A stretch of DNA of 64,000 bases from an uncultured Candidatus Saccharibacteria bacterium (GCA_964449245.1 CAYUXY010000002.1:39463-103462), one strand, 5' to 3'. Counted from the first letter of the stretch, positions 8,034 through 59,973 are shown. Numbers and translations: made by a program. The notes: generated from the letters alone by a model not told the origin.

Positions 8034-8040
8034 AAATATT

Positions 8041-11519: not shown

Positions 11520-11660
11520 ATATGAATTTATGCAAACTTCTTAGTCGAAACGCACACCGCAAAAAATAGGAGCCGAAATAAAGTGGTCCCGACTACCAAA
11601 TGATAATAGAAATGGCATAAAAATCAAGCCATATATAAATTATGTGAATAATGCCCGATT

Positions 11661-12497: not shown

Positions 12498-12543
12498 ATT
12501 AATTATTATACCTCACCGACAGCTTATTGCGCCAAATAAATCT

Positions 12544-13587: not shown

Positions 13588-13649
13588 TCCACAAGAAAAT
13601 CTTGCCGTTCCTAATAGAAGTGATATTATAAATGAAGAATCCCACAGGA

Positions 13650-13686
13650 AAATCCCGCCACTCTGTAGAGTGGCGGGATTTTTATA
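13650..13686. terminator. bidirectional rho-independent terminator between convergent tig and pgk
   Basis: Hairpin aatcccgccactc-tgta-gagtggcgggatt flanked by an A-run and a T-run. Confidence 0.6.
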
Positions 13687-13695
13687 ATCCTAAAA

Positions 13696-14829: not shown

Positions 14830-14836
14830 AAAATTA

Positions 14837-15850: not shown

Positions 15851-15855
15851 AAATA

Positions 15856-16587: not shown

Positions 16588-16621
16588 ATTGTTGATATAA
16601 ATATATGAGTGTTCGTGTCAT

Positions 16622-17266: not shown

Positions 17267-17284
17267 TGATATTTAATAAAACGA

Positions 17285-19651: not shown

Positions 19652-19652
19652 A

Positions 19653-20060
19653 TTATTTTAAAATTCCCCTCTTTTTGAGTTCGGGAATCATTTTATCAAC
19701 CAAAGCGTCATGAAACGCATCTGCAATGAATGGCGGATGTTTTTGTGAAGCGTTTATAGCTTTTTCCAATCCTTCGCTAAGCGCTATATCGATAAGAGAT
19801 TCGACTGTTTTTTTAATCTCGTCCTGACTTACATCTTCCGTCAAATAGGCGGGGAGGCGTGTCGACGATTGTGGAACCGGAGCCGACTGTTGCCCTGCGT
19901 TAATAACAGGAATTTTTTCGGCTAAAGAACGGATGGCGTTCTTTACAGCCTCTCTCTCCGCAATATTGCGACCATTTGCATTTTCAATGGAAGATTGAAC
20001 ATGATGTCCCACATCTTCAATCTCGCGTTCAAAATTTTGGCTGAAATCAACTGTTTTCAT
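19653..20060 (-). CDS. hypothetical protein
   Basis: 135-aa ORF immediately downstream of the ATPase. No recognisable motifs. Confidence 0.45.
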   Translation of the reverse strand: MKTVDFSQNFEREIEDVGHHVQSSIENANGRNIAEREAVKNAIRSLAEKIPVINAGQQSAPVPQSSTRLPAYLTEDVSQDEIKKTVESLIDIALSEGLEKAINASQKHPPFIADAFHDALVDKMIPELKKRGILK

Positions 20061-20110
20061 AATTTCTTCATTTGATTATAAATCAAAAAAAGAATAACTC
20101 CAAAACCTTT

Positions 20111-21439: not shown

Positions 21440-21476
21440 ATTTTATTCGAAATTCGTAAATCGACATTCAGAAATT

Positions 21477-22688
21477 CTATTTGAGGTCATTATATATATT
21501 AGTTATTTCTTCAGCTGTAAGCGCTCGGCGATAAATCCGCACTTCATCAAATACTCCTGCCGGAGAATATATCTCAGCCCAACTTTGTTTACCGACATAT
21601 AACTCGCTTGCAGTATCCCAATCAGTTGTCGTACTTATATTAAGCGACCCATTTGATACGCCATTTAAATATCCATAAACTTTCGAATCTGCGCGATTTA
21701 CGACAATAGCAGCCAAATACCAGTTATTGCTATTTATAGCGTTTGTAAAATTACCAGAAACATCAAAACTTCCTCCACCGTCTCCGGCTGAGAATTTCAA
21801 ATATGCACCGGAAAATTCCCACCTCCAGCCATCATACGATCCACTATATTTATTAATCAGACTTTTTTCACCAGAAAGAGCCGTATAATCATTTACCTTA
21901 AACCATGCAACAACAGAAAAGTCTCCTGTTTGGAAATTAAGGCTTTCTCCGGAACCAAATTTTCCATACGTTCCGCTTCCGTTAAATAATGCGCAGGCTC
22001 CGGCTTTGCAATTCGGATATGAAACCCACGTAGGCACGCTCAAAAATGTACCAGTAGATCCCCTGCCGGACGCGTCATATATAGTTGAGCTTGCTCCCTC
22101 GTCAAAATGCCAATATCCAGCCAGTCCATCTTCAACCCTTACTGTAGTTTTTCCAAGAGTATTGATTACGACATCGCCCGCCAAAATTCCGTCACTTCCG
22201 GAATAAAGAGTAATGACTTTTTTTGCGTCCAATACTCCGGACAACGCGCTTAAAACCACATCGACGGTTTGTCCTAAATGCGGATTGCCAAAACGAACTC
22301 CGCGTCTTAGCGAATAAGTCTGATCAATAGTACCGGACGCGTAACTTTGGCCACTCCAAACTTTGAACGAATCCGTATCTCCGCTCGACAATCTCAATCC
22401 CCACGCCTTACCGTTTTCCTGAGTAATGGATCGTTTTTGCGTATCGCGGATAACCGCGACAAGTTCCCCTAATGTAAGCCGTAGATTTTGACTGCTCCTG
22501 TATTTTGAAAACATTACAAACCCGCCGGTAGACACTATCGCCGCAATCGCAACGACAACAAGAACCTCTATGAGAGTGAATGCCGATTTTTCACGCAATT
22601 CGTTTTTAAACGGATTGCGTTGGAAAAATCGAGCACCCCGCCCTCTAAGCGGTGATTCTTTTTTTGAGTGATCGCCAAGAACTTCCAT
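21477..22688 (-). CDS. type IV pilin-like protein with LamG-like domain
   Basis: KSAFTLIEVLVVVAIAAIV prepilin motif, LamG-like region (GYWHFDE ... WYLAAIVV ... YLNGV). The ATG start overlaps the GIY-YIG gene. A TTG at about 22598 would give a short MREKS leader. Confidence 0.65.
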   Translation of the reverse strand: MEVLGDHSKKESPLRGRGARFFQRNPFKNELREKSAFTLIEVLVVVAIAAIVSTGGFVMFSKYRSSQNLRLTLGELVAVIRDTQKRSITQENGKAWGLRLSSGDTDSFKVWSGQSYASGTIDQTYSLRRGVRFGNPHLGQTVDVVLSALSGVLDAKKVITLYSGSDGILAGDVVINTLGKTTVRVEDGLAGYWHFDEGASSTIYDASGRGSTGTFLSVPTWVSYPNCKAGACALFNGSGTYGKFGSGESLNFQTGDFSVVAWFKVNDYTALSGEKSLINKYSGSYDGWRWEFSGAYLKFSAGDGGGSFDVSGNFTNAINSNNWYLAAIVVNRADSKVYGYLNGVSNGSLNISTTTDWDTASELYVGKQSWAEIYSPAGVFDEVRIYRRALTAEEITNIYNDLK

Positions 22689-28228: not shown

Positions 28229-28557
28229 AAGAAACTTTTTAGCTGCCCCAATTTCACCGGTGTTTAAAAAGATCCGGCAACTTTTTTTGGTACCGTGCTT
28301 GCGCACGGTATTACAAACCGCTGAAAGTTATCCGCCATTTGAAAATAGATTTCCAAATAAAAAGCGGATTGCTTTCGGCGATGTGTAATCGACTAAATTA
28401 ATTAATCCACGAACAGCTTCCGCTACCCGTGCCTTGTTACGACTTCGTCCGTGTCACCGAGCTTAGGCTGAACCCCTGTTGGAGTTTTCACCCACTCCCG
28501 GCTCCCCTGACGTGACGGGCGGTGAGTACAGGACTCGAGAACGTATTCACCGCGGCG

Positions 28558-28593
<36 letters not shown>

Positions 28594-28835
28594 AGGGCGA
28601 GTTGCAGCCCTCAATCCGAACTGGGGCGGTTTTTGATGGGATTAGCTCCGTCTTACGACTTGGCAACCCATTGTTTCCGCCATTGTAGCATGTGTGTAGC
28701 CCAGGGCGTCAAAGGGCCATGCTGATTTGACGTCGTCCTCGCCTTCCTCCGTCTATAAGACGGCAGTATCCCGTGACACATATAACACGGGAGAAGGGTT
28801 GCGCTCGTTACCCCACTTAAGGGAACACCTCACGG

Positions 28836-28866
<31 letters not shown>

Positions 28867-29121
28867 CCCGCCGTCCTTGCGGACAACAATCCTTTCGGAC
28901 TGTCTTCGTCGGGATTTCAAGCCCTGGTGAGGTGTCTCGTTTACCATCGAATTAAACCACATGCCCCACCGCTTGTGCGAGTCCCCGTCTATTCCTTTGA
29001 GTTTTAAGCTTGCGCTCGTACTTCCCAGGCGGCAGATTTAACGCGTTAGCTACGCCACCCCGAGGGTCGATACTCGAGACAGCTAATCTGCATCGTTTAG
29101 GGCGTGGACTACAAGGGTATC

Positions 29122-29765
29122 TACAATTTTGTTACTGCATAACAAAATTGCAATTTCTAATTTTGAATTTCGAAACTAATCGAAATAAAAATCTAATAAT
29201 TGCAAGCTCTGTTATGGGATGAAATATTTCTATTCATCTCTCTATGTCGCCATAGAGTTCGGCCTATATCTTCTCATCATAATGACGAGTCTGGCGTATA
29301 GTCTCTGAGGCTCCAAATTTACTATAGAAAATTATTCTTGAATCATTGTATAGACGATTCGAAGAATTTCTCAATTTTGATCTCATCGATTGCTTATCAT
29401 TGCTTCTATACAAGATCATTGCTTGATCGATTGATCAATTTTCCTATCAACATAATAAAATTGTTGCCTGCTGATTGTCTGCACCGAAAAGATTTTCACT
29501 CAACAATGAGTACTCTCGGATTCTCAGATTTTCCAGCATATAGCCAGATTATCCCCCGGACGACTTTCCGGAGGGGACTAATGCTCAATGGTACCCTTCC
29601 ACTCCGCGTATTCTTCAATACGCGAGACAATACATTTTTCAAGAAGCTCTCGGAAGTGAAAAAGATTGGTCTTTTGTAAAACAAAAGTTTTTCACTGAGA
29701 GTGCAAACCCGATTTTCCGCTGGAGAAAATCGAGGTTGGTTCTTGAAAATGAATTATCGAGCAAG
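29122..29765 (-). other. ~640-nt intervening sequence inside 16S (between GGATTAGA and GATACCC), ORF-less and highly structured
   Basis: Conserved 16S sequence is contiguous once this block is removed. No homing-endonuclease ORF. Multiple local hairpins. Boundaries are ambiguous by 2 nt. Confidence 0.7.
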
Positions 29766-30335
29766 TCTAATCCTTTTTGCTCCCCACGCTTTCGCGCCTC
29801 AGGGTCAGGAACGTCCCAGCAGAATGCCTTCGCCTTTGGTGTTCCGCACGATATCAACGGATTCCACCCCTACACCGTGCGTTCCATCTGCCTCTAACGC
29901 CCTCTAGTATGATAGTTTCCACGGCAGTTTCGGAGTTGAGCCCCGAGATTTAACCGCAGACTTATCATGCCCCCTACGCGCCCTTTACGCCCAATAAATC
30001 CGGATAACGCTTGTGGCCTTCGTATTACCGCGGCTGCTGGCACGAAGTTTGCAGCCACTTATTCCCGCCGTACTATCAGTCTTGCGACTTTCTCCGGCGG
30101 AAAAGTAGTTTACACACCTAAATGCTTCATCCTACACGCGGCGTCGCTCCATCAGGCTTTCGCCCATTGTGGAATATTCTCGACTGCTGCCTCCCGTAGG
30201 AGTAGGAACCGTATCTCAGTTTCCTCGCTGGGGAACAGGCTCTCACCTCCCCTACCGGTCGTAGTCTTGGTAGGCCATTACCCTACCAACTAACTGATCG
30301 GACCTAAGCCACTCCCAAAGCAACTTGCGTCTTTA

Positions 30336-30432
30336 CCCATCTCCAGTTCACTGAAAACAATTTCCTAAATACAAAGTTTGTAATATTAACATTCTTTGTT
30401 CAAAAAAATGTACTCAGTGAACTGGGGATGGG
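30336..30432 (-). repeat. 97-nt structured hairpin element in 16S V2 helix (copy A)
   Basis: cccatctccagttcactg ... cagtgaactggggatggg. Identical to copy B except for one compensatory base pair. Confidence 0.85.
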
Positions 30433-30515
30433 ACCATCGGGAATTAGTTCGCCTTTCGGCGAATTATGCCCGACTCTGGGGTATGTACTAAGGTGTTACT
30501 AGCTCGTTCGCCACT

Positions 30516-30612
30516 CCCAGCTCCAGTTCACTGAAAACAATTTCCTAAATACAAAGTTTGTAATATTAACATTCTTTGTTCAAAAAAATGTACTCAGTGA
30601 ACTGGGGCTGGG
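30516..30612 (-). repeat. 97-nt structured hairpin element in 16S V1 helix (copy B)
   Basis: cccagctccagttcactg ... cagtgaactggggctggg. Identical interior to copy A. Confidence 0.85.
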
Positions 30613-30764
30613 CGTTCGACTTGCATGCCTTATCCACGCCGCCAGCGTTCATCCTGGACCAGGATCAAATCCTCAAAAAAACAAATTGGGACAACTAAAA
30701 AATTTCTTTATTTTTTCGCTGTTTTAACTATTAAATTGACAAAAAACTTTCCTTTTTCACAGCA

Positions 30765-38608: not shown

Positions 38609-38788
38609 ATTTCTTCTTGAAATATTGTTGTATCCTGTTAATCGTTATTTCTTCTTTTAACTTTTTACTTTTCTCTTTCGTCTTGTTATTTCTCTCATCC
38701 TGTCAAAAGTCTCTTTTTGTTAATCGTTAATCCTATTAATCGTCATTTGTTCTTTTATCTTTTAACTTCTTTCATTCGATTATTAATT

Positions 38789-38868
38789 CATTCAATCGAA
38801 ATTCGAAATTAGATAAATCGAAATTTACCGTATTTTTTTCTACATACTATATACAATATTCTATATAC
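38789..38868. repeat. intergenic repeat module A plus motif B (actatatacaatattctatatac) overlapping the NUDIX stop codon
   Basis: cattcaatcgaaattcgaaattagataaatcgaaattt ... ctacatactatatacaatattctatatac. Confidence 0.75.
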
Positions 38869-39331
38869 TCATCTTTTCTTCTTCCAACGTATGTTCCAGC
38901 ACTACATCATCATCGCCAAACAAAAATTTGCCTCTAAATTTCTTTCCCGCGAGAAAAAGCGACATCCAATATATATCGCTCGGCCACATATCGGAAAATG
39001 GAATTTCCGCAATATTAAACCATTTTGGCGCCATTTCGTCAGATTCAACCGGCTCGCCCTCAAATTTGTCCGAATAAAAGATGTGCATCTCGAGAGTTTC
39101 CCCTTCTCTATTTTTTGATTCGAATTCAAGCACTCCTCGTTTTTCATAAGATAAAATCTTTATTCCGGATTCTTCAAGCATCTCGCGGACACACGTTTCT
39201 TCAACTGTTTCGTTTTCCTCTACCTTTCCGCCAAATCCATTCCACCTGCCAGCGCCGAAACGGACCTTTTTCATCCCGAGTAAAATTTCATTACCCCGCC
39301 TGATTAGACACAATGTAAAAACTTTTTTCAT
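38861..39331 (-). CDS. NUDIX hydrolase (MutT-like)
   Basis: Nudix box GGKVEENETVEETCVREMLEESG. 156 aa. Confidence 0.85.
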   Translation of the reverse strand: MKKVFTLCLIRRGNEILLGMKKVRFGAGRWNGFGGKVEENETVEETCVREMLEESGIKILSYEKRGVLEFESKNREGETLEMHIFYSDKFEGEPVESDEMAPKWFNIAEIPFSDMWPSDIYWMSLFLAGKKFRGKFLFGDDDVVLEHTLEEEKMSI

Positions 39332-39422
39332 ATTAGTATTTCGTATTTTTGTCTTTCTTCTTTTCTCTTTTAACTTACGTATTTAGAAATTTGCATTTTT
39401 ACTTTAAACTTTCATCTTTTCT

Positions 39423-39451
39423 CCCTACGGGAGATCTGCCGTAGGCAGACA
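39423..39451. repeat. palindromic core tccctacgggagatctgccgtaggcagac inside an AAAG/CTTTT-rich array (reverse-complement copy at 60499..60530)
   Basis: Two nested palindromes, tctccc-tac-gggaga and tctgcc-gta-ggcaga. Exact reverse complement occurs 21 kb away. Confidence 0.8.
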
Positions 39452-39558
39452 ACTTTATATTTCTCCCATTCAATCATTAATACATTCAATCGAAATTCGA
39501 AATTAAGTAATTAGAAATTATTTCTCCTGCATACTATATACAACATTCTATATACCAT

Positions 39559-40074
39559 TTACTTTCTTTTGAATATACCTACGGCTATTCCTATCTCCTC
39601 CTGAATTCCCTTAACACAATCGTAGTTTTTAATCTCTTCTTCATTTACCCACGCGAAATCGGTAAATGCGCCCTCTTCAGGGCGAACTTCGCCGGATTTG
39701 TATTTCACAGCAAGTTTTATAAGAACTACAGGAATCCCGTCAGGACGCACAAACGCAACGCTATTTATATAAACAAACTCGTCTTTTATCTCCACTCCTG
39801 CCTCTTCCTTTATTTCTCGTTTCAAAAGTTCTTCGACGGCGTTTTCAAAATCAAAAACATCGCCATTCATTCTCGTTGGCTTCGATAAATCAAGGTCTTT
39901 CCACTCAAGCTTTCCGCCCGGAACACAATATTTCCCCGGATGCACTTTTTCCGTTTCGCTTCTTTTTAAAATCAAACTTCTCCCGTCGCTCTCACGATAA
40001 ATAACCGCGTTTGCGACGAAATAAAAAAGTTTATTTTCTTTTGCGTTTTCAAGACTTATTTTCTCTACCGTCAT
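39559..40074 (-). CDS. NUDIX hydrolase
   Basis: GGKLEWKD ... REIKEEAGVEI Nudix box. 171 aa. Confidence 0.85.
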   Translation of the reverse strand: MTVEKISLENAKENKLFYFVANAVIYRESDGRSLILKRSETEKVHPGKYCVPGGKLEWKDLDLSKPTRMNGDVFDFENAVEELLKREIKEEAGVEIKDEFVYINSVAFVRPDGIPVVLIKLAVKYKSGEVRPEEGAFTDFAWVNEEEIKNYDCVKGIQEEIGIAVGIFKRK

Positions 40075-40088
40075 AGTTTTAAAATTAT

Positions 40089-40538
40089 TTATGGAATATA
40101 AAATAAATTTTTCTTATAGTTTTCAACCATCATTGCACTCGGAAAATACATAGGGCTTGGCAAATCGTCAACATCAAACCAACACCATTCGACTATCTCA
40201 TCCGGTTCCATAATTTGTGGCTCTCCGGAGAATTTATCCGAAAAAAGTCCTACGGTCACAAAATGCGCGTGTTCATTTTTGCAATTATTCACGCAAAACA
40301 CTTTTATTTCATCCAAATGAAGTCCTGTTTCTTCGAGCACTTCACGTTTAGCTCCGTCTTCGAAAGATTCGCCAAAATCCATCTTCCCGCCGGGCATTGT
40401 CCACGTTCCTTCTCCTCGCAACTCCGAGCTCGCCTTTTCGGCGTCAGAATGACGCCTTCCGAGCAATATTTTCCCGTCACGCATTACCATAACACCAAAC
40501 CCAGCTTTTACTATTTTCTTTTGTATTTCATTATCCAT
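40089..40538 (-). CDS. NUDIX hydrolase
   Basis: PGGKMDFGESFEDGAKREVLEETGL Nudix box. 149 aa. Confidence 0.85.
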   Translation of the reverse strand: MDNEIQKKIVKAGFGVMVMRDGKILLGRRHSDAEKASSELRGEGTWTMPGGKMDFGESFEDGAKREVLEETGLHLDEIKVFCVNNCKNEHAHFVTVGLFSDKFSGEPQIMEPDEIVEWCWFDVDDLPSPMYFPSAMMVENYKKNLFYIP

Positions 40539-40573
40539 AAGACTATTATTTTATATTTAAAAATAACCCGCCA

Positions 40574-41002
40574 CTATATTTTATCTTTATATAATTCGAA
40601 AAACTTGGGCAATTGGGAATGTAACGGTGTTGGTAGCGTGTCAAAGGTGAACCATTTTACATCTTCAAATTTATGAGGCTCTCCATTTTTTACCTTCTCT
40701 CTGTTGATAAACACCTTAAAATCAAGCGCTATCCAGTGAGTCCTCTTGCCATCGTGCTCCCTATGAACATCCCTATATCCCAAAAATTCGTAATCTAAAA
40801 CATCCGTGCAATATTCTTCTTTAATTTCTTTTTTTAATGTATTTTCGACGGTATCACCAAACTCAAGCGCGCCAGCTCCTATATCCCATGCATTATGCTC
40901 ATCACGACAATTTGCGCTTCTTTTTGCCAACAACACATTTGCCTTTCCGTCATGACAAAGATATACAACAGTTACTCCGGTATAGTCTTCTCCTTTTTTC
41001 AT
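40574..41002 (-). CDS. NUDIX hydrolase
   Basis: GAGALEFGDTVENTLKKEIKEEY Nudix box. 142 aa. Shares the start context acaaaaatacgaaatactaatATGAAAAAAG with the gene at 39331. Confidence 0.8.
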   Translation of the reverse strand: MKKGEDYTGVTVVYLCHDGKANVLLAKRSANCRDEHNAWDIGAGALEFGDTVENTLKKEIKEEYCTDVLDYEFLGYRDVHREHDGKRTHWIALDFKVFINREKVKNGEPHKFEDVKWFTFDTLPTPLHSQLPKFFELYKDKI

Positions 41003-41119
41003 ATTAGTATTTCGTATTTTTGTCTTTTGTATATTGTTTTATTATTTTGTTAACAGTCGATTGTTGTTAATCGTCATCCTGTTAATAGTTATTTAACTTC
41101 CTTCATTTAATCATTAACT

Positions 41120-41190
41120 CATTCAATCGAAATTCGAAATTAGGTAAATCGAAATTTGCATTACTTTCTACTTTATAAACTTTTAACTTT
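41120..41190. repeat. dispersed intergenic repeat module A (copy)
   Basis: cattcaatcgaaattcgaaattaggtaaatcgaaatttgcattactttctactttataaacttttaacttt. Confidence 0.8.
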
Positions 41191-46597: not shown

Positions 46598-47473
46598 CTA
46601 TCGCAAGCCAAAAACAGATATGTGTCCACCTGAAATTTCAGCTTTTATCGTTCCATATTCATCCGTCCTGAATATTTCCGCTCCAGAGTCTAAAATACGA
46701 CCGACCGCCTCCATAGACGGATGTCCATACGAATTTTTGCCAACCTCTATAAATGCGAGTTTTGGCTTTATTGCGCTTAAAAAATCATTACCGCTCGAAT
46801 ATTTCGAGCCGTGATGTGCAACCTTCAGAATATCTATCTCTGGCAAAAAAGATGCGATTGCGGATTCCGAAGCAAAGCCTACGTCTCCGGAAAAGAGCGC
46901 GCTTGCCCCGTCGCTCCTTAGAAGAGTAACCATACTATTGTCATTCATATTTTTTTGTACGCTATCGTATCTCGGCCACAAAATTTCTATTACTGAATCC
47001 CGATAATGGATTTTGTCGCCTCCGGAAACAACGATGCGCGTAATGCCTGCGCTATTTATTTCTTCTTCAAAAACTTCGAAAGATTCGCTGTCGCTTTTAA
47101 GTTTCGCGAGAGCAAGCGATCTTATAGGCATACTTTTTATAACATCCGCAAACCCGCCATAATGGTCTATTTCCGGATGTGTTAAAATCGCTAAATCTAT
47201 TTTTTTATTTGTAAAAGGAAGTATGTTGCCAATTTCGTTCGCTGATCGGCCGTTAGCCGGCCCGGCGTCTATCAAAATATTTACTCCGCCCGCAAAAGTT
47301 ATAAGCTCGCTGTCGCCTTGCCCTACGTCAAGAAAATAAAGAGCTGTTCCGTTTGTGTCTTCGGATAAAAATCCGGCAATTGCAAAAATATCAAACACGA
47401 GGCATATTGCCGTTATTGAGAAAAAAATATTCAGACGTTTTCTTTTTTCGTAATATTGTTCTCGCGATTCCAT
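46598..47473 (-). CDS. ComEC/Rec2 C-terminal metallo-beta-lactamase-fold domain protein
   Basis: LDVGQGDSELITFAGGVNILIDAGP and HHGS motifs. 291 aa. The 5' end overlaps the preceding ComEC ORF by 83 nt in another frame. Confidence 0.75.
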   Translation of the reverse strand: MESREQYYEKRKRLNIFFSITAICLVFDIFAIAGFLSEDTNGTALYFLDVGQGDSELITFAGGVNILIDAGPANGRSANEIGNILPFTNKKIDLAILTHPEIDHYGGFADVIKSMPIRSLALAKLKSDSESFEVFEEEINSAGITRIVVSGGDKIHYRDSVIEILWPRYDSVQKNMNDNSMVTLLRSDGASALFSGDVGFASESAIASFLPEIDILKVAHHGSKYSSGNDFLSAIKPKLAFIEVGKNSYGHPSMEAVGRILDSGAEIFRTDEYGTIKAEISGGHISVFGLR

Positions 47474-48917
47474 AAAAAATGATTAACGCTGTGTAATATA
47501 ATAGCACGGCTGGAGTGGAAAAATTCAGGGACACGCCTCCGCTAATTTTACCAAAAAATTCTATGATTCCTATTTCGCATTGTAACAAGAATCCGAGCAC
47601 TACTCCGGAGATAATCGAAAGAAAAGGCAGTGAAAGCTCCACAAAAACAGAGACAAACCCGAGAGCCATTGTAAACGGCGTAAGGGATAAAAGAACTATA
47701 TTTGCCGGCAAGGACGCAAGAGAGACAAAGCCAAATTTGGAAAGCAAAATTGGCAAAACCGTTATTTGCGCGGAAACGGTAGTTAACAGATTTTCTTTCC
47801 ACGAGAATATTCCTTTGTCTCCGTTTGTGTTCAAAAAAAGTTCTATTTTGGGCTTCAAATAAACGATGCCGAGTAAAGCGAGGAACGAGAGTTGAAAGCC
47901 GATATCAAAAATCAAAATTCGGGGATTATATAAAGACATAATTAGCGCCGAGAGCAAAATAACATTTTTCATACTTTCCCCGCTTCCAAATAGGCGCCCG
48001 AAAAGAATAGATGCCCCCATGATTCCTGCGCGGGCAACCGAAGGCTCCCCTCCCGTCATTATTGAAAATCCGGCTATCGAAAACAGCGATGCGAAAAACG
48101 AACCTCGCGGAGTCATAAAAAGCGTAAACAGTGATGCTACGGCAAGAATTAAAATTGTTATGTTGTATCCGGAAAGCGCGACGAGATGCGTAGTTCCACT
48201 CTTCTTCATAGCTTCATCAAATTCGGAAGAAAAATCGTTTGTATTGCCAAGCAATATACCCTTTAAAAAAGCTGCGGATTTATACGGCAAAATAGCATTA
48301 ATTGCGAGCTCGACTTTTCCTTTTATTTTAAATAGCGCGGATTTAATGAAAGAACCGTTATTATGAGAAATTAAAATAATTTCAGGAAACGATAAAATTC
48401 CATACATTCCTTCTTTTATTAAATAATTTCCATATCCGTTTTCGGGAATCTGTTTTATTTCTCCGGTAAATTCTACTTTGTCGCCATATTTGAAGACAGG
48501 AAATCTCGCGGTCTGAATAAGTATATTACCCCTATAAGGCTCTGATAATTTTACCGCAATCTCCTGCTTTTTTTCTGAAAACGCCGGCGATTTTGACACA
48601 ATACCTTGAATCGTAACGGCATCTGAAAATGGAATATTTATTTTACTATTCTGTATATCAAAAAATCCGGAATAAAACGCTCCGCAAAATATAAATGATG
48701 CCACGAATGGAAAAAACAAAAAGCCTTTCTTTTTGGAGAAAAAATAGCAAACGAGCGGAACTATAAATAAAACGAGTATGAACGGGAATGCCGTCACGCC
48801 GAAACCTAAGCTCGCAAGCGCAATTCCAATGAGCACTCCCGACGACCCCCAAAAGAATTTTTTATGCAGAGCATCAAGCGAATGCGCGAGAAAAAATGAC
48901 ATGAGCGAAAAATACAA
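47391..48917 (-). CDS. ComEC/Rec2 competence membrane-channel domain protein
   Basis: 508 aa polytopic membrane protein with a competence-domain-like core. Confidence 0.7.
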   Translation of the reverse strand: MYFSLMSFFLAHSLDALHKKFFWGSSGVLIGIALASLGFGVTAFPFILVLFIVPLVCYFFSKKKGFLFFPFVASFIFCGAFYSGFFDIQNSKINIPFSDAVTIQGIVSKSPAFSEKKQEIAVKLSEPYRGNILIQTARFPVFKYGDKVEFTGEIKQIPENGYGNYLIKEGMYGILSFPEIILISHNNGSFIKSALFKIKGKVELAINAILPYKSAAFLKGILLGNTNDFSSEFDEAMKKSGTTHLVALSGYNITILILAVASLFTLFMTPRGSFFASLFSIAGFSIMTGGEPSVARAGIMGASILFGRLFGSGESMKNVILLSALIMSLYNPRILIFDIGFQLSFLALLGIVYLKPKIELFLNTNGDKGIFSWKENLLTTVSAQITVLPILLSKFGFVSLASLPANIVLLSLTPFTMALGFVSVFVELSLPFLSIISGVVLGFLLQCEIGIIEFFGKISGGVSLNFSTPAVLLYYTALIIFYGIARTILRKKKTSEYFFLNNGNMPRV

Positions 48918-49054: not shown

Positions 49055-49558
49055 TTACATTCTATTTCCTAACTCCTTCCTTATCACTCTCATCAGTTTT
49101 GATTTATCTTCTCCGGCACAAACAACGCCTGCATTTTCGTATCCCATTTTTTCATAGAATGCGTATGCCGTATCCCTGTACCTTTCTGCGCTCCTTCCCA
49201 TTATTTCAGTAAATCCGAGATCCTTTGCTTTTTCTTCCACGAGACTAAGAAGAGTTCTGCCAATACCCTTACCGCGACAATCTTTTTCGAGATACAAAAT
49301 CTTTAATTCGCACGGCTTTTCCGTTTTGGCAAACTCAACAATTTTTGGCAATACATCGCAAATACCGGTAATTCCGACAATGATGTCGTTATCTACAGCA
49401 ACCCAATATTTAGCATTGAATTCAGTTTTATCTTTAATATATCCCCCTATTCTTTCAATATATTTTTTTACCTCACTTTCGTCAGTCCATTCGGATAATA
49501 TCTTTTCTATCGCCGGCAAATCTTCCTCTACGGGTTTTCTAATAATTATGTTCGACAT
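49055..49558 (-). CDS. GNAT family N-acetyltransferase
   Basis: Acetyl-CoA-binding motif RGKGIGRTLL. 167 aa. Confidence 0.85.
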   Translation of the reverse strand: MSNIIIRKPVEEDLPAIEKILSEWTDESEVKKYIERIGGYIKDKTEFNAKYWVAVDNDIIVGITGICDVLPKIVEFAKTEKPCELKILYLEKDCRGKGIGRTLLSLVEEKAKDLGFTEIMGRSAERYRDTAYAFYEKMGYENAGVVCAGEDKSKLMRVIRKELGNRM

Positions 49559-49746
49559 ATCTTAATATTAATTTAATAACTGAGTAAAAAGTTGAAAGTA
49601 CAAAAGATGAAAGTGAAAAAACTAAAGCACGAATGTGGGTATTTTTCTTTCTTTTCTTTTAACTTTAAACTTTTATCTTTTTACTTTTGTCTTTTATCTT
49701 TCTGCATTCTTCTCTAACAACTAAAAACTAAAATCTAAAAACTGCA

Positions 49747-51450
49747 TTACGCCACTTCCGCTTGATAACATTCTTTGCAATAAATAATCGGAGCATTTTT
49801 CTCTAAAAATGTAGTCCTAAACGAAACTCCACACTTGGAACATTCGCGCTCTATTGTTTTGCAATAATTGATATTTTCAATCCACCTGTTTACCTTTTTC
49901 ATAATCCTACACATAGGACACTCCCGCGGAAGAGGCAAGTTCATTCTTTTTAAAAACTGAAATTCCATACCTATTATGCGAAATCCATTACCGCAGGCGG
50001 AACATTTAATAACTTCGTTTAAGATTGATTCGTCCGCGTCTTTTATATTATCAGGCAATTCATCGAAATTTTTAGTTATCTCGTGCTCTTTTTGCGGTCT
50101 GTCTATCCACCGCAATCCTTCATTTTCCGACTGCTCTCTTGTCTTCGGAAAAAATAAACTCCCAAAAGAATCGTTGTATGGAACGTCGGATAATTCCATA
50201 GGGAAAAATTCGCCGTATTTATAAATATTTCCCTTTTTATCCGTATATGGCATTTCGTCCATATGTTTTATTATTTTTTCGCGAAGAGAATTGAATTCGT
50301 CCTCTGAATATCTTTTGTTCAATATGCAATACTCTCCTTTGTTTACCGATACGCAACCAAAATGATTTTTGCCTCCATTAGACAATCTCGAATATTCGGC
50401 ATCGGATTGACCTAATCCGCTTTCCCAGCAAAATTTTATTCCAGAAATGTTTTCTCCAACGTTTACGGAATCATAAGAACGGCTCATATTATTTCCCCAG
50501 CTTGAAATGTCGTATGATTCGCTTGACGGATTATCATTTACCAAAAACAAGAATTTTGAATCCTGCGAAAAACTCGTTTCGAAGCCTTCCATCACATTTT
50601 TCGAATTGAAAATATAATTTCCGGTTGAATTAACGCAAAATCTGTCATAAAGCCCTTTATACGGGTATTTTTTATTGTTTTCTTCGGCTTGTTTTTTAAC
50701 AGCTATATATTGAGAATATGAACCTAAATCAATTTCCGATAGCTTTCTAAAATATTCTTCTTTTGATAATTGTTCATTAAAGAAGACGTACTTTTTGTTT
50801 TTTATATTTGCAGAAGCAAAACAATTTTGGCACCCAACCGCATCGCGGGTAAACAGGCATTCCATAGATTCTGTAGTGTGATCAACGCCAATACATTTAT
50901 TGTCTTGAAAACTGTGTATTGAATCGAAACACAGCTCCGAATCTGAGGTTATGGAACAATCAAAAACCTCTTTATTGTCAAAATGGTGAAAGCCATAAGC
51001 GCAATTTTCATCCCTGTCGCTATGAAAAATAAGATACGAATTTTTCTGATTCCCTACGTGGTTCGTATATGGAGAGGTGGCAATGGACGCGATGTCTGTA
51101 GAAAGCGCGGACAAGGGAGCCTCGTGCAACAACTCATTAAATTGTTCGAAAAACGGGCGCGAAAAATCATAGTCTCTTCCGTAATCATACGGGCTCCAAT
51201 TATCGCTCCACCAACATTTTGCGCAATAAACTACGTATTTTGCGTCAGGCGGATATCGCGAAACAACACTTTTTTTGCATAAATCGCAGTCTCGTTTATA
51301 AAGACGAAATGTGTTTAAAAAAGCCAATCTCCGCTCTAATCTGCACATCGGGCAAAACGTCGGTGGAGGAACGTCAATCTTCTGATAAAAAGCTTCATCG
51401 TCAGGCGTGATTTCAAAATCTGTTTTACAATTTTGGCACGGCTTATTCAT
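49747..51450 (-). CDS. cysteine-rich protein with terminal zinc-ribbon-like modules and internal repeats (paralog 1), unknown function
   Basis: 567 aa. N-terminal CQNCKTDFEITPDDEAFYQKIDVPPPTFCPMCRLERRL. The C-terminus repeats this CxxC ... CPxCR module. Internal GCxxxxNKxYCIxNxxYSxEEY repeats. Confidence 0.7.
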   Translation of the reverse strand: MNKPCQNCKTDFEITPDDEAFYQKIDVPPPTFCPMCRLERRLAFLNTFRLYKRDCDLCKKSVVSRYPPDAKYVVYCAKCWWSDNWSPYDYGRDYDFSRPFFEQFNELLHEAPLSALSTDIASIATSPYTNHVGNQKNSYLIFHSDRDENCAYGFHHFDNKEVFDCSITSDSELCFDSIHSFQDNKCIGVDHTTESMECLFTRDAVGCQNCFASANIKNKKYVFFNEQLSKEEYFRKLSEIDLGSYSQYIAVKKQAEENNKKYPYKGLYDRFCVNSTGNYIFNSKNVMEGFETSFSQDSKFLFLVNDNPSSESYDISSWGNNMSRSYDSVNVGENISGIKFCWESGLGQSDAEYSRLSNGGKNHFGCVSVNKGEYCILNKRYSEDEFNSLREKIIKHMDEMPYTDKKGNIYKYGEFFPMELSDVPYNDSFGSLFFPKTREQSENEGLRWIDRPQKEHEITKNFDELPDNIKDADESILNEVIKCSACGNGFRIIGMEFQFLKRMNLPLPRECPMCRIMKKVNRWIENINYCKTIERECSKCGVSFRTTFLEKNAPIIYCKECYQAEVA

Positions 51451-51504
51451 AATTTCTAATTACTTAATTTCGAATTTCGATTGAATGAATCAATGATTGA
51501 ATGG
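51451..51504. repeat. repeat module A (reverse orientation) directly abutting the ATG of the Cys-rich gene
   Basis: aatttctaattacttaatttcgaatttcgattgaatgaatcaatgattgaatgg. A similar copy lies at 53321..53378. Confidence 0.75.
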
Positions 51505-51598
51505 AAAAAGTATAAAGTTGTAAGACAAAAGATGAAAGTAAGAATGCAACTATTTTTCTCTGTTTTTTTTCTTTTAACTTTAAACTTTCGTCTTTTGT

Positions 51599-53320
51599 CT
51601 AACTGATTTCATTTTGGTAACACTGTTCACAATATATGACTTCCGGTCTCTCTGGAGCGTAGGATGTCATTATTTCCGCACTACATTTTGCGCAATTACG
51701 TTTCCACAATTTAAGAGGATTCCTTTGCATCAAACGCGAAAAATAACGGCAATTAGAGCACTTTCTCGGAAGCGGGATATTCATTCTTCTGTAAAATTGG
51801 AGTTCCTGCGGGACGATTCTGAAAGCCTTTGTGCAATTGCATCGTTCTTTCATATTTGGATTATCTTTATCATCCCACGTTTCGCACTGTATTATTTCTT
51901 TCAAAATATCATCGGTTACTGTGGAAATTTCTTCCGGTAAATCTTCCCACGATTTAGTCGGAACATAATCCTTATCCTTAATTTCTTTCCAAACATATCC
52001 CCGCTTTAATGCTTCGTCTTTTGAAAGATAAAAATAGTCCTGCGCCGCGCTTATGTTATACGGCAAAAATGATGCTTCCGGTGGGAAAAACTCGCCGAAT
52101 TTATATGTTTTTCCAAAACTCAAAAACGGCATATCGTCCATATGTTTTCTTATTTCCGGCAATAATTTTTCATACTCTTCTTTTGAATACTGTTTGTTCA
52201 AAATGCAGTATTGTTTATTCTTAAGCCCCACACATCCGAAAAGATACGAGGACGAATAACAATTATCACAATACGTTAAATCGTGGCACGATTCCCACGA
52301 TTCGTTAACGAATCTGATATTTGAGAGATTATATCCGCAATTCGCGGTTTCATACACAAGCTCCGCATTTCTTCCCCAGTACGAATAATCCATACAATCT
52401 TTACCCTCAATAATGGACAACAAATTCTTTCCATGCTCAACATCTCGTAATTGATAGGAATTGGACACATCATTGCAATTTGTAAGCCAATTTCCCGAGG
52501 AATTCGTGCAATTTATAGCAACCGTTGATCTGCGCGGATAATTCATTGCAAATTTTTTAAAACGTGCGCGCATCTTTTCAACACCCATTGCCGTATTGAG
52601 ATGAAAATCACGCAGTTTTATTTCATAATCCTCTTTGGAATATTGTTCATTGAATATACAATATTGCTTATTTAAAAGACTGGCGCATCCGATACAATTC
52701 GAGCAATTTCTGCAATCAAATAGAAAAAATGAATCCCTGCACTGCCTGCATTCCTGCAGATATTTGGACCCATAGCATTCGAACGCGTCTATACTGCCAA
52801 ACACGAGTTCGGATTGATGAACATTGAAGCAATCCATACAATCTCTTGATTCCCAAAGATTGTACGAGTAGCTCGAATTTTCATTATAATTCGCCCTGAT
52901 TATGAGGTAGCAACCTTTGTTATAACTCGCGCGGTTGCAAAATTCATTTCCTGCCTGATCGCCCTGAATCGTTCTCTCCGCTCTCGGAACACGAGCCTTC
53001 AATTCCCTAAACTGCTGGAAAAACGGTTTTGAAAAATCATAATCTTTTCCATATGAAATCGGATCCCAATTGTCGCTTCTGTAGCAATCCAAACAATAAA
53101 CCGGATACTCTGAGCCGGTGTCGTGCGTAGAAATTATTTTCTTTCCGCAAAGTGAACAAGTATTGCCGTATAAATATCTCTCCGCGCAAAAAGAAAGCCT
53201 CCGCTCAAATCTGCACGTCGGGCAAAATGTCGGCGGAGGAACATCAATCTTCTGATAAAAAGACTCATCATCGGGAGTGATTTCAAAATCAGCATTACAG
53301 TTCTGACACAGCTTATTCAT
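51599..53320 (-). CDS. cysteine-rich protein, tandem paralog 2 of the 49747..51450 gene
   Basis: 573 aa. About 60% identical in the N-terminal 100 aa (MNKLCQNCNADFEITPDDESFYQKIDVPPPTFCPTCRFERRL). Same internal repeats. Confidence 0.7.
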   Translation of the reverse strand: MNKLCQNCNADFEITPDDESFYQKIDVPPPTFCPTCRFERRLSFCAERYLYGNTCSLCGKKIISTHDTGSEYPVYCLDCYRSDNWDPISYGKDYDFSKPFFQQFRELKARVPRAERTIQGDQAGNEFCNRASYNKGCYLIIRANYNENSSYSYNLWESRDCMDCFNVHQSELVFGSIDAFECYGSKYLQECRQCRDSFFLFDCRNCSNCIGCASLLNKQYCIFNEQYSKEDYEIKLRDFHLNTAMGVEKMRARFKKFAMNYPRRSTVAINCTNSSGNWLTNCNDVSNSYQLRDVEHGKNLLSIIEGKDCMDYSYWGRNAELVYETANCGYNLSNIRFVNESWESCHDLTYCDNCYSSSYLFGCVGLKNKQYCILNKQYSKEEYEKLLPEIRKHMDDMPFLSFGKTYKFGEFFPPEASFLPYNISAAQDYFYLSKDEALKRGYVWKEIKDKDYVPTKSWEDLPEEISTVTDDILKEIIQCETWDDKDNPNMKERCNCTKAFRIVPQELQFYRRMNIPLPRKCSNCRYFSRLMQRNPLKLWKRNCAKCSAEIMTSYAPERPEVIYCEQCYQNEIS

Positions 53321-53564
53321 AATTTCTAATTATCTAATTTTGAATTTCGATTGAATGTATCAATGATTGAATGTCTGAATGCATTCTTCTGTGCCTATAT
53401 ACTATATACGATATTCTATATACCTTCTTACCTATTCCCCTATCTCTTCTTCAACGAAACCTTGCGCCCCTCTTTCTTTCTGTGCTTCTTTTTGGCTATT
53501 TTTTGTGTTTTATTCATATTCGATTATATTTTGATAATATCACTCATTTACGGGTTTTTCCACT

Positions 53565-57216: not shown

Positions 57217-59973
57217 CTATACCGCAGGGCCTATCGGTTTCGTAATGCCATTAAAAATCGGAGTTTTTGAAAACTCACCGTTTACAAATCTCGCGCGGAG
57301 TATTTCCCCTATCGTAGCATTTCCCGAAACTTCATTGGGAGACATATTTATAGATTTCATAAAGTTAACCGCCTTCACATCGGCATCTTTATTCCAAACT
57401 TCCCACATCTTGCTCGCTTTTGTGTTAAAGAATCTATCAACTCCTGCATCATCCATTTTTGTAATAGACTTCACTGAATCAATAAATTGCGTTTCGTTTG
57501 CATTAAACGTCTGTTCAAGTTCAAAAAAGTTAGTGTTCAGCCTTGCAAGAGTCTTTGCGTCCTCTGCCGAAAATTCACTCGCGGGTATATTTTTCAAATT
57601 TTCATATTGAACGACAACATCTCTTATTCCTTGACTATATAAAACATTTTCTTGCTCGGTAAGAGAAAGTGAGGAAAAACTTTTTGCATTGCGTTCCAAA
57701 TCATTCGCGGTCTTTTCAAAAAGAGTCATCATTTGCTCGTGTTCTAAAATCGGAGACGCCTCTACCGCGATTTCGGGTTCATTGTTCAAAATCGGAATAC
57801 TCGGATCGGATTGATGTCCATAAACCGTACCTGCCCGCACTTCTTCTATGTTATCCTTGCCGTCAATCACAAATTTATCGGAAACATCTTCGGAAGAATA
57901 ATCTTTAAGATTATACGTTGTTCCGTCTGTATCCACAGACTCGCTTGAGACGTCGGAAGATACGTCGTGCGTATATTCATAAGTTCTTTCAAGCGGAATG
58001 TTTCCTCCCGACGGTTTGCCGTCAATAAATTCGCGGACAGATACTTCGCCGTTTGAGTCGTGCGTAATTACATAAGCAGGGTTCCCCTCTTCGCCTTCCG
58101 GACCTAAATCGAGAACGCGAACTTCGGTTCCTTCCGCCGGATTTATATATTCATTATCTACGGCGATATTGTATGCTTCTTTTCCGGACCAAGCGTGCAC
58201 TGCGGACGCGTCCGACGGATCCCCCTCATACCCCCATTCCTTCGGATTCACCTCAAGCTGACGCTGAATCGCGTGCGTTATCCCTTCTCCCTTGCCAACC
58301 GTTGCGCGGTCAATCATTTCCGGAGTAATACTAATTTTTGGGCTCACTACTCCGGTATTCTCGAATGATAAATGTGGAGATACTGCAGCCTTCGGGTTCG
58401 GAATCAACACGTCCGAATCGTGAACCTTCATCGGGTCATAGGCATCAGCCGAGCTTTCAACATTTATTTTCGGAGTAATAAAAGGATGGCCTGCCGTATC
58501 GACAGTTGTCGAGTTCGGAGGAGCATAATCCTGCTTATACATTCCAGAATGTACTTCCGGAGTGTGGATTGGAGCGGACGGAAAATGAACGGAATCCGCC
58601 AAATTCATAACGCCCTTGGAAATAAGGTCTCCGCCATATACACCGACACGGCTTCCCAAAAGTCCGGCGAGTATCGTTCCAAGCGTCCTGTTTGCCTTAT
58701 ACCATTTTTCTTGTTTTTTGAGTTTAGAAAGATATTGCTCGCTTAAGGCGATATTTTTGTCGGCGACATCTTTCAAAATTTTATTTCTTTCAAATTCGGA
58801 AGTTGTATCTACCGCGTGTAAAAGATCATCCGATACATCTTCTATCGCCTTTGTTTCAGTTCTTTCCGTAAGCTTTTCTCTATCGTGCTTAAGCGCCTTC
58901 TCGGCAAGGGGTTGAAATATTTTTTTAGAAAGAAGATAACCAAACTCTCCGCCAACAAGAGCTCTTACTACTTTGATTCCCACAAACCCAGCGCCTCCTA
59001 CACCAAGCGCAACAACGCCGGGAAACGCGAGCGCCATTCCGCCTCCGATAATTGCGGCGGTAAGCGCAGTGCGAGTATTTCTATTCATTTTAAAATATCC
59101 GCCGACAAGCTTACTTTCCGCGAGAGCCTCGCCTGTTCGTTTGAAAAATCTGCCAATACGACCCCCCTTCGGATCAATAGCCTCTTCCATTTTTACCCTC
59201 TCGTCCTGCCAGCGCATCATTTCAGCATTTATAAGTTTCATCGAATCAACTTCGATTTTCTGAACTTTATTTTCAAAACCACTGTCTCTCCCTTCGGCTT
59301 CCGCCTTGCTTAATTCCGTTTTTGTATATGAAATTTTAAATTCACGGAGCTTGTCTCTGTATTTATCTTCTAAAACAGCTCTCTGCCCGCGTAACTCTAA
59401 TCGCGATTTATCATTTTCGAGCTTTGCTTCTGGAGATTTATCAGCATTATATTTCTCATCCGCGATTCTCATTTTTTCGGCAAGCAAACGCATTTCGTTT
59501 CTCGTCTCCGCAACTTTCGCCGCAGTCTCTATCTCGGACATTGAAAATGCCTTATTCCTTAACGCTGCTACTATATTTTCTTTTGTTGGATCTACTCCTT
59601 CAGGAAAACCGCTCGGAATTCTTTTTTGAGTCAAAAAAGAATCGGCAACAATATCAATTTCATCGCTACTCAAAACGCGCCCATGCAATTCGTCATAAAG
59701 TTTTTTGACTATTTCTCTATTTTCTTCTTTATTCGGATCTATTCCTTTACTTTTTGCAATAGCGAATGTGGCACCAAATACATCCCGTTTAGTTAACGTT
59801 CCGGATAGAATTGATGCGCATGCCTTTGAATTCGCAGCATCTAATTGATCCGGTTTGTGCTTACTTGCATCAAAACCCAAAAGAACTTCGGAAGCAAACC
59901 CGAGTTCCTTATCCGGCTCTTCGTGTGAATTTTCTTGTTCGGGCGATGCGCCTTTTTGATCAGGATTTTCCAT
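57217..59973 (-). CDS. large hypothetical protein (918 aa) with acidic N-terminal region, coiled coils and central Gly/Ala-rich TM hairpin
   Basis: Long uninterrupted ORF. TM segment ALTAAIIGGGMALAFPGVVALGVGGAGFVGI. No recognisable catalytic motif. Confidence 0.6.
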   Translation of the reverse strand: MENPDQKGASPEQENSHEEPDKELGFASEVLLGFDASKHKPDQLDAANSKACASILSGTLTKRDVFGATFAIAKSKGIDPNKEENREIVKKLYDELHGRVLSSDEIDIVADSFLTQKRIPSGFPEGVDPTKENIVAALRNKAFSMSEIETAAKVAETRNEMRLLAEKMRIADEKYNADKSPEAKLENDKSRLELRGQRAVLEDKYRDKLREFKISYTKTELSKAEAEGRDSGFENKVQKIEVDSMKLINAEMMRWQDERVKMEEAIDPKGGRIGRFFKRTGEALAESKLVGGYFKMNRNTRTALTAAIIGGGMALAFPGVVALGVGGAGFVGIKVVRALVGGEFGYLLSKKIFQPLAEKALKHDREKLTERTETKAIEDVSDDLLHAVDTTSEFERNKILKDVADKNIALSEQYLSKLKKQEKWYKANRTLGTILAGLLGSRVGVYGGDLISKGVMNLADSVHFPSAPIHTPEVHSGMYKQDYAPPNSTTVDTAGHPFITPKINVESSADAYDPMKVHDSDVLIPNPKAAVSPHLSFENTGVVSPKISITPEMIDRATVGKGEGITHAIQRQLEVNPKEWGYEGDPSDASAVHAWSGKEAYNIAVDNEYINPAEGTEVRVLDLGPEGEEGNPAYVITHDSNGEVSVREFIDGKPSGGNIPLERTYEYTHDVSSDVSSESVDTDGTTYNLKDYSSEDVSDKFVIDGKDNIEEVRAGTVYGHQSDPSIPILNNEPEIAVEASPILEHEQMMTLFEKTANDLERNAKSFSSLSLTEQENVLYSQGIRDVVVQYENLKNIPASEFSAEDAKTLARLNTNFFELEQTFNANETQFIDSVKSITKMDDAGVDRFFNTKASKMWEVWNKDADVKAVNFMKSINMSPNEVSGNATIGEILRARFVNGEFSKTPIFNGITKPIGPAV

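Follow-up and report, generated by a model that had tools for sequence, protein, structure and literature searches.

The stretch analysed here, referred to as the window, comprises 64,000 nucleotides of one strand from an uncultured Candidatus Saccharibacteria bacterium (GCA_964449245.1 CAYUXY010000002.1:39463-103462), with positions counted from its first letter. It contains a pair of neighbouring genes, par2 and par1, which encode cysteine-rich proteins of nearly equal length and belong to a large protein family that is the subject of this analysis:

49747-51450, minus strand: par1, 567 amino acids with 28 cysteines, from a second, ancient subfamily with fewer central cysteines
51599-53320, minus strand: par2, 573 amino acids with 39 cysteines, from the canonical cysteine-rich subfamily

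An earlier note on this DNA, made from the sequence alone, had described the two open reading frames (ORFs) as tandem paralogs. They are indeed 38% identical over 584 columns in BLASTP (E=1e-136) and score 888 bits (par2) and 711 bits (par1) with a hidden Markov model (HMM) of the family. The high Cys and Tyr content noticed earlier is also clear, with 6.8% Cys and 7.2% Tyr in par2 and 4.9% and 5.5% in par1, and Asn reaches 7.5-7.8%; the high Trp content claimed at the same time is not found, the values of 1.6% (par2) and 1.2% (par1) not being high when judged by typical protein composition. No transmembrane segment or signal-like N-terminus is predicted in either protein, and the proteins are cytoplasmic. 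Invariant columns are present across 150 family sequences, and both par1 and par2 are bona fide protein-coding genes under constraint.

Each protein starts and ends with a double zinc-finger module:

53036-53320, minus strand: par2 N-terminal module (residues 1-95), Cys4 sites 5/8/33/36 and 55/58/76/79; predicted local distance difference test (pLDDT) scores above 92
51602-51895, minus strand: par2 basic C-terminal module (residues 476-573), Cys4 sites 479/496/521/524 and 543/546/564/567; sub-threshold zf_Tbcl_2/TIGR04272 match at residues 541-570
51166-51450, minus strand: par1 N-terminal module (residues 1-95), CxxC motifs at 5, 33, 55 and 76, from the family alignments
49750-50013, minus strand: par1 C-terminal module (residues 480-567), CxxC motifs at 483, 511, 537 and 558; sub-threshold zf_Tbcl_2 match at residues 534-564

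When sub-alignments of the family are compared, the N-terminal module (residues 7-82) and the C-terminal module (residues 495-570) turn out to be homologous (hhalign probability 99.5%, E=3e-22), in agreement with the mirrored zinc-ribbon-like termini of the earlier note. The 16 terminal cysteines of par2 make up four Cys4 sites, and 15 of them are conserved at 92% or more in both subfamilies; the exception, C524, is present in 67% of the par2-like group and in 100% of the par1-like group. The C-terminal module has a family median net charge of +5 and an isoelectric point of 8.8.

The second finger of each par2 terminal module has the same CxxC-x17-CxxC spacing as the domains zf_Tbcl_2 (PF23477), zf_Tbcl (PF13451) and TIGR04272. 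The spacing is present at C55/C58-x17-C76/C79 and C543/C546-x17-C564/C567 of par2 and at C537/C540-x17-C558/C561 of par1. The window proteins score 18.9 and 16.3 bits with PF23477 (cutoff 27) and 16.7 and 14.7 bits with TIGR04272 (cutoff 36), and the best sub-threshold match, to a "probable treble-clef zinc finger", lies at the extreme C-terminus. PF23477 is matched at E<0.01 by 12 of 35 family members, with a best E-value of 4e-8. Zinc is bound by this type of domain in small Methanosarcina proteins, as measured by inductively coupled plasma mass spectrometry (PMC12704099). However, the domain covers only about 30 of the approximately 570 residues, and the window proteins stay below the cutoffs. 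As none of these domains has itself been assigned a function, the match does not inform on the role of the protein.

Between the terminal modules, two internal repeats are followed by a smaller acidic domain:

52601-52936, minus strand: par2 predicted solenoid repeat 1 (residues 129-240), with the cysteine-rich stretch C182/C191/C194/C203/C206/C209/C212, ending in GCASLLNKQYCIFNEQYSKEDYE
52145-52510, minus strand: par2 predicted solenoid repeat 2 (residues 271-392), beta-rich, ending in GCVGLKNKQYCILNKQYSKEEYE
51896-52144, minus strand: par2 acidic alpha/beta domain (residues 393-475), with invariant or near-invariant P398, G409, P413, Y421, N422, W444 and T455
50266-51063, minus strand: par1 central region (residues 130-395), repeats 1 and 2 with a helical linker between them, from the alignment to par2

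Like the terminal modules, the repeats (residues 129-239 and 277-390, approximately) are homologous to each other, with an hhalign probability of 99.7% (E=2e-25). The two internal repeats of about 110 residues proposed earlier are thus confirmed, and the end motif quoted for them is present in par2, at residues 211-233 (GCASLLNKQYCIFNEQYSKEDYE) and 362-384 (GCVGLKNKQYCILNKQYSKEEYE), while in par1 it is degenerate (residues 212-234 and 365-387). The cysteines of the central region are largely subfamily-specific and softly conserved, only C206, C209 and C363 being universal; occupancy of the central Cys and His positions varies between and within subfamilies, and in par1 several positions conserved in its subfamily are replaced. 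The domain of residues 393-475 has a family median net charge of -6, and neither a structural nor a sequence match to it was found. An acidic solenoid acting as a DNA mimic, like the pentapeptide-repeat proteins, was considered and rejected, as the two lobes of the solenoid carry little negative charge (median net charge -1 to -2).

The AlphaFold2 model of par2, calculated from a 150-sequence alignment, forms one compact particle with a mean pLDDT of 91.5 and a predicted template modelling (pTM) score of 0.91; an earlier model from 35 sequences had low confidence in the centre (pLDDT 55-75). Confidence is very high for the terminal modules, and the least confident region (residues 150-215, pLDDT 65-75) is the densest cysteine stretch of repeat 1. 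The central part superposes on solved beta-solenoids and consists of internally repeated coils. In the fold as modelled, the two homologous double zinc-finger modules flank a two-lobed, cysteine-laddered beta-solenoid and the acidic alpha/beta domain, all in a single compact unit, and nothing among solved structures corresponds to this predicted architecture.

The solenoid resembles the narrow beta-solenoids of CsgA (PDB entry 8c50), the Tenebrio antifreeze protein (1ezg) and the heads of YadA-like adhesins (3s6l, 3ntn), but in fold only. The antifreeze protein has regularly spaced cysteines on its coils, as in this family, although there they are disulfide-bonded; sequence identities are 6-16%, the known proteins are extracellular and not cytoplasmic, and here the solenoid has two lobes and is flanked in sequence by zinc-finger modules and an alpha/beta domain. 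Polymerisation of the solenoids into a cytoskeletal or envelope scaffold of several paralogs, in the manner of bactofilins or CsgA, would account for the many co-expressed paralogs per genome. We regard it as highly improbable: the zinc modules and helices that flank both lobes in sequence would be expected to block end-to-end stacking, a secretion signal is absent and there is no evidence of polymerisation.

Scans of both proteins with Pfam, NCBIfam and PADLOC gave no family above threshold. Searches of PDB sequences, whether started from a single sequence or from a profile, gave nothing beyond chance LIM/CRP matches (E>0.1), and Foldseek found nothing in the PDB (E>7). The earlier statement that the proteins have no recognisable family and no catalytic motif therefore stands, and no confident profile match to a characterised enzyme family, which had been set beforehand as the refuting outcome, appeared in Pfam, NCBIfam or PADLOC. 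No defence-system match was obtained for either paralog in PADLOC-DB, where the neighbouring ATPase (see below) has only weak HerA/mad8 matches. A literature search on the family, its motifs, PF13451 and PF23477, and Parcubacteria zinc-ribbon paralogs gave nothing relevant. We rate the family as a new kind, assembled from known fold elements, for which no describing paper or curated model was found.

The family is large. Among 1.84 billion cluster representatives (50% clustering), its profile has 5,298 matches at E<=1e-3 and 2,187 at E<=1e-30; a word index gives at least 7,966 matches, and contigs taken at one genome per species contain more than 552 encoding stretches. Gene context was analysed in 87 loci of up to 22 kb, the ORFs of which were scanned with the family HMM, and 79 species-level loci were kept. 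These are almost all labelled as Patescibacteria (Nomura-, Staskawicz-, Jorgensen-, Lipton-, Giovannoni- and Sungbacteria, Paceibacteria and Minisyncoccia); one "Burkholderiales" metagenome-assembled genome (MAG) has a gene order of the Nomurabacteria type and is probably mislabelled. Related forms of about 550 residues are present in Gracilibacteria and Peregrinibacteria. A mobile-element family can be discarded, the proteins being essentially absent from plasmid and viral collections: the plasmid collection has no match and the viral contigs a single partial one at a contig end.

Two or more copies are present in 61 of the 87 loci, nearly always on one strand, with up to 10 and 11 in single loci. 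For 96% of the 172 copies found in arrays, the closest relative is encoded in another genome and not in the same array (identity medians of 61% across genomes and 44% within an array). The arrays are therefore made up of old, individually conserved subfamilies and not of recent bursts or hypervariable cassettes. In the two largest arrays (L005, positions 1-17695, from a 621-kb contig of GCA_024239035.1, and L046, positions 3262-21881), at least 10 and 11 copies lie within 18-22 kb, and on one side or both each array extends to the limit of the retrieved locus. A gene for an M17 aminopeptidase interrupts the array of L005, and L046 has two VirD4-like ATPase genes, each at the start of a sub-array.

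The earlier note had taken the pair in the window for a recent duplication. The par1 orthologs are 50-69% identical to it, the best being a Jorgensenbacteria protein (P0272, 69%), and the par2 orthologs, from Patescibacteria MAGs, are 56-61% identical; between par1 and par2 the value is lower, as given above. Each copy is closer to proteins of other genera than to its neighbour, so the duplication is not recent, and par1 and par2 fall into two subfamilies that separated long ago. Their adjacency, a small case of the arrays described above, is not conserved in the genome of the closest relative of par1. The similarity is concentrated at the 5' ends, in a patch present in both genes:

53188-53373, minus strand: par2 copy of the 5' patch, from -53 to +133 of the ATG
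51318-51503, minus strand: par1 copy of the 5' patch, 86.6% identical to the par2 copy over 186 nucleotides (blastn)

In the remainder of the two genes, blastn aligns only two short DNA stretches at about 70-72% identity. Over the first 45 residues the two proteins are 82% identical, where comparisons across subfamilies have a median identity of 64% (95th percentile 73%), and beyond them the identity is 34%. The N-terminal similarity is mostly due to strong conservation of the module throughout the family, and the extra similarity at the 5' ends is best explained either by gene conversion over a short tract or by a dispersed repeat present at both 5' ends. The patch is what might suggest that the pair arose by recent local duplication of an unimportant lineage-specific gene, or even that the ORFs are untranslated; given the separate ortholog sets, the low identity beyond residue 45 and the thousands of homologs with invariant residues, the chance of this is practically negligible.

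When the 993 neighbouring genes from the 87 loci are clustered, the commonest cluster is a P-loop ATPase of about 500 residues, for which TrwB_AAD_bind, TraG-D_C, DUF87 and T4SS-DNA_transf score just above the Pfam cutoffs. The earlier reading had overlooked this recurrent VirD4/TraD-like neighbour, as well as the size of the family and its arrays of up to 11 copies. The ATPase is present in 24 of the 79 species-level loci. From a total of 34 ATPase genes, 25 are directly adjacent to and co-oriented with a family gene, 14 being directly followed by one on the same strand, mostly after a gap of 4-86 nucleotides, and 11 being directly preceded by one. A 2025 survey of 2,918 Patescibacteria genomes counted 5,713 VirD4-like coupling proteins (PMC12102498), about two for each genome. 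If some 800 genes per genome are assumed, the ATPase would be expected by chance in roughly 3% of loci of this size, an approximate expectation and not a computed statistic.

Two gene orders recur. One is SecD/F, sigma70-HARE-HTH, DUF8128 (with two transmembrane helices), a 185-residue transmembrane protein, the ATPase, CutA1 and the family array; the other is DnaK, ATPase, family gene, ATPase, DnaJ and family gene. The ATPase is membrane-anchored through DUF8128, which is either fused to it or encoded next to it. The link extends to Gracilibacteria, where one genome has a DUF8128-ATPase fusion at a distance of 2.3 kb from two paired family genes. In Gracilibacteria-type genomes (L093, positions 7097-11307, and L094, positions 1601-9674) the family genes are paired with divergent genes for TrmB-family regulators, and in L093 the DUF8128-ATPase fusion is separated from the family pair by a ParE toxin gene. 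Genes related to tRNA modification (Dus, TGT, Sua5, a tRNA_bind protein, MnmA and MiaB) are found near some copies; none recurs like the ATPase, and they are treated as background from translation-rich small genomes. The window contains one ATPase of the same type:

17285-19651, minus strand: membrane-anchored ATPase of 788 amino acids with one N-terminal hydrophobic helix, a DUF8128-like N-terminal part and a VirD4/TraD/HerA-like domain (397.7 bits with the HMM of the commonest neighbour cluster, cluster 0, and 50.8 bits with that of the DUF8128-like cluster; Pfam TrwB_AAD_bind and TraG-D_C)

An M17 metallo-aminopeptidase borders the arrays in six loci, and CutA1, a protein named for divalent-ion tolerance, is directly adjacent in six. 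Together with the Cys content of 4.9-6.8% and the four Cys4 sites, these neighbours would suit a cytoplasmic reservoir or a metallochaperone that buffers or hands over zinc or other metals. About four structural sites per 570 residues would be a poor storage ratio, though, some subfamilies without zinc ligands keep the fold, and the large ordered non-cysteine domains with their invariant residues point to specific binding; a role of this kind is very unlikely.

In other relatives, the family domain is fused to an enzyme domain. At least eight protein clusters of 725-734 residues, one of them labelled Bdellovibrionales, are N-terminal fusions to a GNAT-family domain, and in one relative an inositol-monophosphatase-family domain (PF00459) takes the place of GNAT. 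Neither par1 nor par2 carries a GNAT domain, and in the window a separate GNAT gene is the next one downstream:

49055-49558, minus strand: GNAT acetyltransferase gene, immediately downstream of par1 in transcription (Pfam Acetyltransf_1, E=3.5e-13)
L090, positions 8001-10196, with P0242, P0391-P0393, P0395-P0398 and P0405: GNAT-fused relatives, terminal zinc ligands mostly replaced

The neighbourhood of the Bdellovibrionales-labelled fusion (52% GC) contains IscS, MnmA, MiaB, RNase III, Der, GuaB, GuaA and a FliI-like ATPase, which is not a Patescibacteria-like gene context. Because GNAT is fused to the family in that other lineage, the GNAT gene of the window is possibly linked to the pair. 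The immediate neighbours of the pair are GNAT, ComEC, RmuC, RecQ and Dus. The co-occurrence with GNAT or comEC that the earlier note had proposed to check is not supported in Patescibacteria, with a GNAT neighbour in 0 of the 87 loci and ComEC in two; conserved linkage to any of these five genes is likewise rejected (0-2 of 87 loci).

These fusions are also the starting point for regarding the family as an enzyme or enzyme subunit, either with an acyl- or acetyl-transfer or coenzyme A-related activity exerted together with GNAT, or with a redox or iron-sulphur function residing in the central CxxC-rich stretch. GNAT fusions are conserved, hint at acyl-coenzyme A chemistry in some relatives and bring to mind the left-handed beta-helix acyltransferases with hexapeptide repeats (LpxA, the C-terminal domain of GlmU, gamma-carbonic anhydrase); the PF00459 fusion and the position of the GNAT gene directly after par1 agree with this. 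The central cysteine stretch is kept where the terminal zinc ligands are lost and coincides with the least confident region of the AlphaFold2 model, and several residues of the 393-475 domain are invariant. However, no Hexapep (PF00132) match was found in the window proteins or in 35 family members at E<=0.01, and a ferredoxin-type 4Fe-4S protein is rejected as well, with no Fer4 match and a central CxxCxxCxxC motif that is not followed by CP and varies between subfamilies. No other enzyme family matches either, central Cys and His occupancy is as variable as described, and in the window 188 nucleotides with an A/T-rich repeat separate the GNAT gene from par1, in addition to the lack of GNAT neighbours in the Patescibacteria loci. 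An enzymatic or redox role is therefore quite unlikely.

The reading we favour, with a probability of about 40%, is that the family proteins are cytoplasmic, non-catalytic binding scaffolds or adaptors which work with a VirD4/TraD/HerA-like ATPase, a function inferred from the features above. Each conserved paralog would use its solenoid face and acidic domain to recognise a macromolecular client of its own, and the invariant arginine-rich zinc modules, especially the basic C-terminal one, would dock the protein to a common partner. In Patescibacteria, this partner would most likely be the membrane-anchored hexameric VirD4/TraD/HerA-like ATPase, because its gene precedes or follows the arrays at operon-like distances. 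In the Bdellovibrionales-labelled lineage the same scaffold would instead be fused to GNAT as an alternative output, and the fusion suggests that the scaffold binds a target and offers it to the activity of a partner. The pair in the window is uncoupled from the ATPase gene, and its 5' ends have been locally homogenised, most likely by gene conversion or a dispersed repeat.

Several observations weigh against such an adaptor. The assignment of the ATPase is itself weak, as it stays far below the NCBIfam cutoffs for TraD, VirD4-like CD1115 and CedD, and TrwB in the PDB is matched at E=0.007. No ATPase is found within 10 kb in 55 of the 79 species-level loci, and the ATPase gene of the window lies 30 kb from the pair. 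Where genomes are small and syntenic, a gene adjacency shared by related species does not count as independent evidence. In the GNAT-fused relatives most of the terminal zinc ligands are gone (CPEER for CPxCR) while the central cysteine stretch is kept, so zinc-dependent docking cannot be universal. Finally, this dense central stretch (CxxCxxCxxC-like) could carry a redox or iron-sulphur function, and the protein would then be catalytic or electron-carrying and not a passive scaffold.

The same linkage would be seen if the proteins were not adaptors but translocated effector cargo of the VirD4/TraD-like ATPase, delivered to the host cell of the episymbiont with the basic C-terminal module as signal. 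In Bartonella, tandem bep effector genes lie next to virD4. The family shares with such clients of type IV coupling proteins, which also include the relaxosome accessory proteins that dock to TraD/TraG, the tandem arrays directly beside a VirD4/TraD-like gene on the same strand, seen in part of its loci, and a basic C-terminal region, its last 100 or so residues being conserved and positively charged. Moreover, the type IV secretion system clusters of Patescibacteria mostly lack a relaxase, and PMC12102498 names no cargo for the system. In contrast to the known clients, neither par1 nor par2 has a BID, relaxase or known translocation-signal domain in the Pfam and NCBIfam scans, and the ATPase is only a distant relative of the coupling proteins, far below the family cutoffs, and in the window its gene is not adjacent to the pair. 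Typical effectors evolve fast, while the paralog subfamilies here are ancient, with 50-70% identity across genera. The compact, zinc-stabilised fold should be hard to unfold for export, the C-terminus ends at the last zinc finger without a disordered tail, and the GNAT-fused relatives occur in a gene context without any gene of the type IV secretion system kind. Most VirD4-like ATPases of Patescibacteria are not placed near virB4 and the secretion channel, and exaptation has been raised as a possibility (PMC12102498). For these reasons (ancient conserved paralogs, compact fold, missing tail and distance from virB4) we rank cargo below adaptor and consider it unlikely.

The adaptor reading can be extended to the orphan ATPases themselves. 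The family would then be their missing partner set, and DUF8128-ATPase motors would use the zinc-finger/beta-solenoid arrays as adaptors or cargo to transport proteins or nucleic acids through the symbiont membrane without relying on a VirB4 channel. This extension is unlikely, but if true it would represent a transport or host-interaction system of a new type, at the core of the episymbiotic lifestyle. Patescibacteria genomes measure roughly 0.6-1.4 Mb, with a large share of genes without known function. In genomes of this kind, a family with thousands of members and as many as 11 copies, each about 1.7 kb long, within a 22-kb stretch is among the heaviest unexplained investments seen. The operon-like linkage gives the orphan VirD4-like ATPases a concrete candidate partner, which makes the role testable, and the relatives that are fused to GNAT and depleted in zinc ligands offer a second, possibly more tractable, route to function.

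Both genes of the pair are flanked by two dispersed repeats, which recur in the window:

38773-38804, 39467-39498 and 41104-41135, plus strand, 51472-51503 and 53342-53373, minus strand: 32-nucleotide motif CATTCAATCATTGATNCATTCAATCGAAATTC
38650-38671, 49652-49673 and 51567-51588, minus strand: 22-nucleotide A-rich motif AAAGTTTAAAGTTAAAAGAAAA
51521-51603, minus strand: A/T-rich hairpin that spans the par2 stop codon and contains AAAGTTTAAAGTTAAAAGAAAA (RNA fold -20.6 kcal/mol, z=-3.0)
49575-49700, minus strand: related A/T-rich repeat between par1 and the GNAT gene, with AAAGTTTAAAGTTAAAAGAAAA inside it and a weak fold (z=-1.9)

Motif scans find CATTCAATCATTGATNCATTCAATCGAAATTC five times and AAAGTTTAAAGTTAAAAGAAAA three times, where none is expected for either. 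The first is contained in the upstream part of the 186-nucleotide patch and ends about 20 nucleotides before both ATGs. The second, located in long A/T-rich imperfect hairpins after stop codons, starts 11 nucleotides past the par2 stop and about 74 past the par1 stop, and may be a terminator-like dispersed repeat. Flanking repeats, as described in the earlier note, are present on both sides of both genes, and the hairpin does span the par2 stop. The copies of CATTCAATCATTGATNCATTCAATCGAAATTC in the opposite orientation are located at 38.8-41.1 kb, in the gaps between tandem Nudix-like genes. These are four ORFs of 142-171 residues (positions 38861-41002, minus strand) with Nudix-box-like sequences such as GGKVEENETVEETCVREMLEESG, as read from the ORF translations, and the region has a low GC content and a strongly negative GC skew.

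Directly upstream of the window ATPase are two pilin-like genes (positions 21477-22688 and 20111-21439, minus strand), with an N-terminal methylation motif and a Laminin_G_3 lectin domain, and an ORF of 135 residues; the region from 17285 to 22688 on the minus strand is possibly a unit that combines a pilus or adhesin with the ATPase. An ORF of 918 residues without a Pfam match (positions 57217-59973, minus strand) is located a few kb away from par1 and par2. ComEC is encoded on the minus strand as two ORFs that overlap by 83 nucleotides, one with DUF4131 and Competence domains (47391-48917) and one with a metallo-beta-lactamase domain (46598-47473), which could be due to a split gene, a frameshift or an assembly error. 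The 16S rRNA gene (28395-30680, minus strand, 2,286 nucleotides) is interrupted at 29240-29629 by a group I intron (Rfam RF00028, 65 bits), as is common in Patescibacteria.

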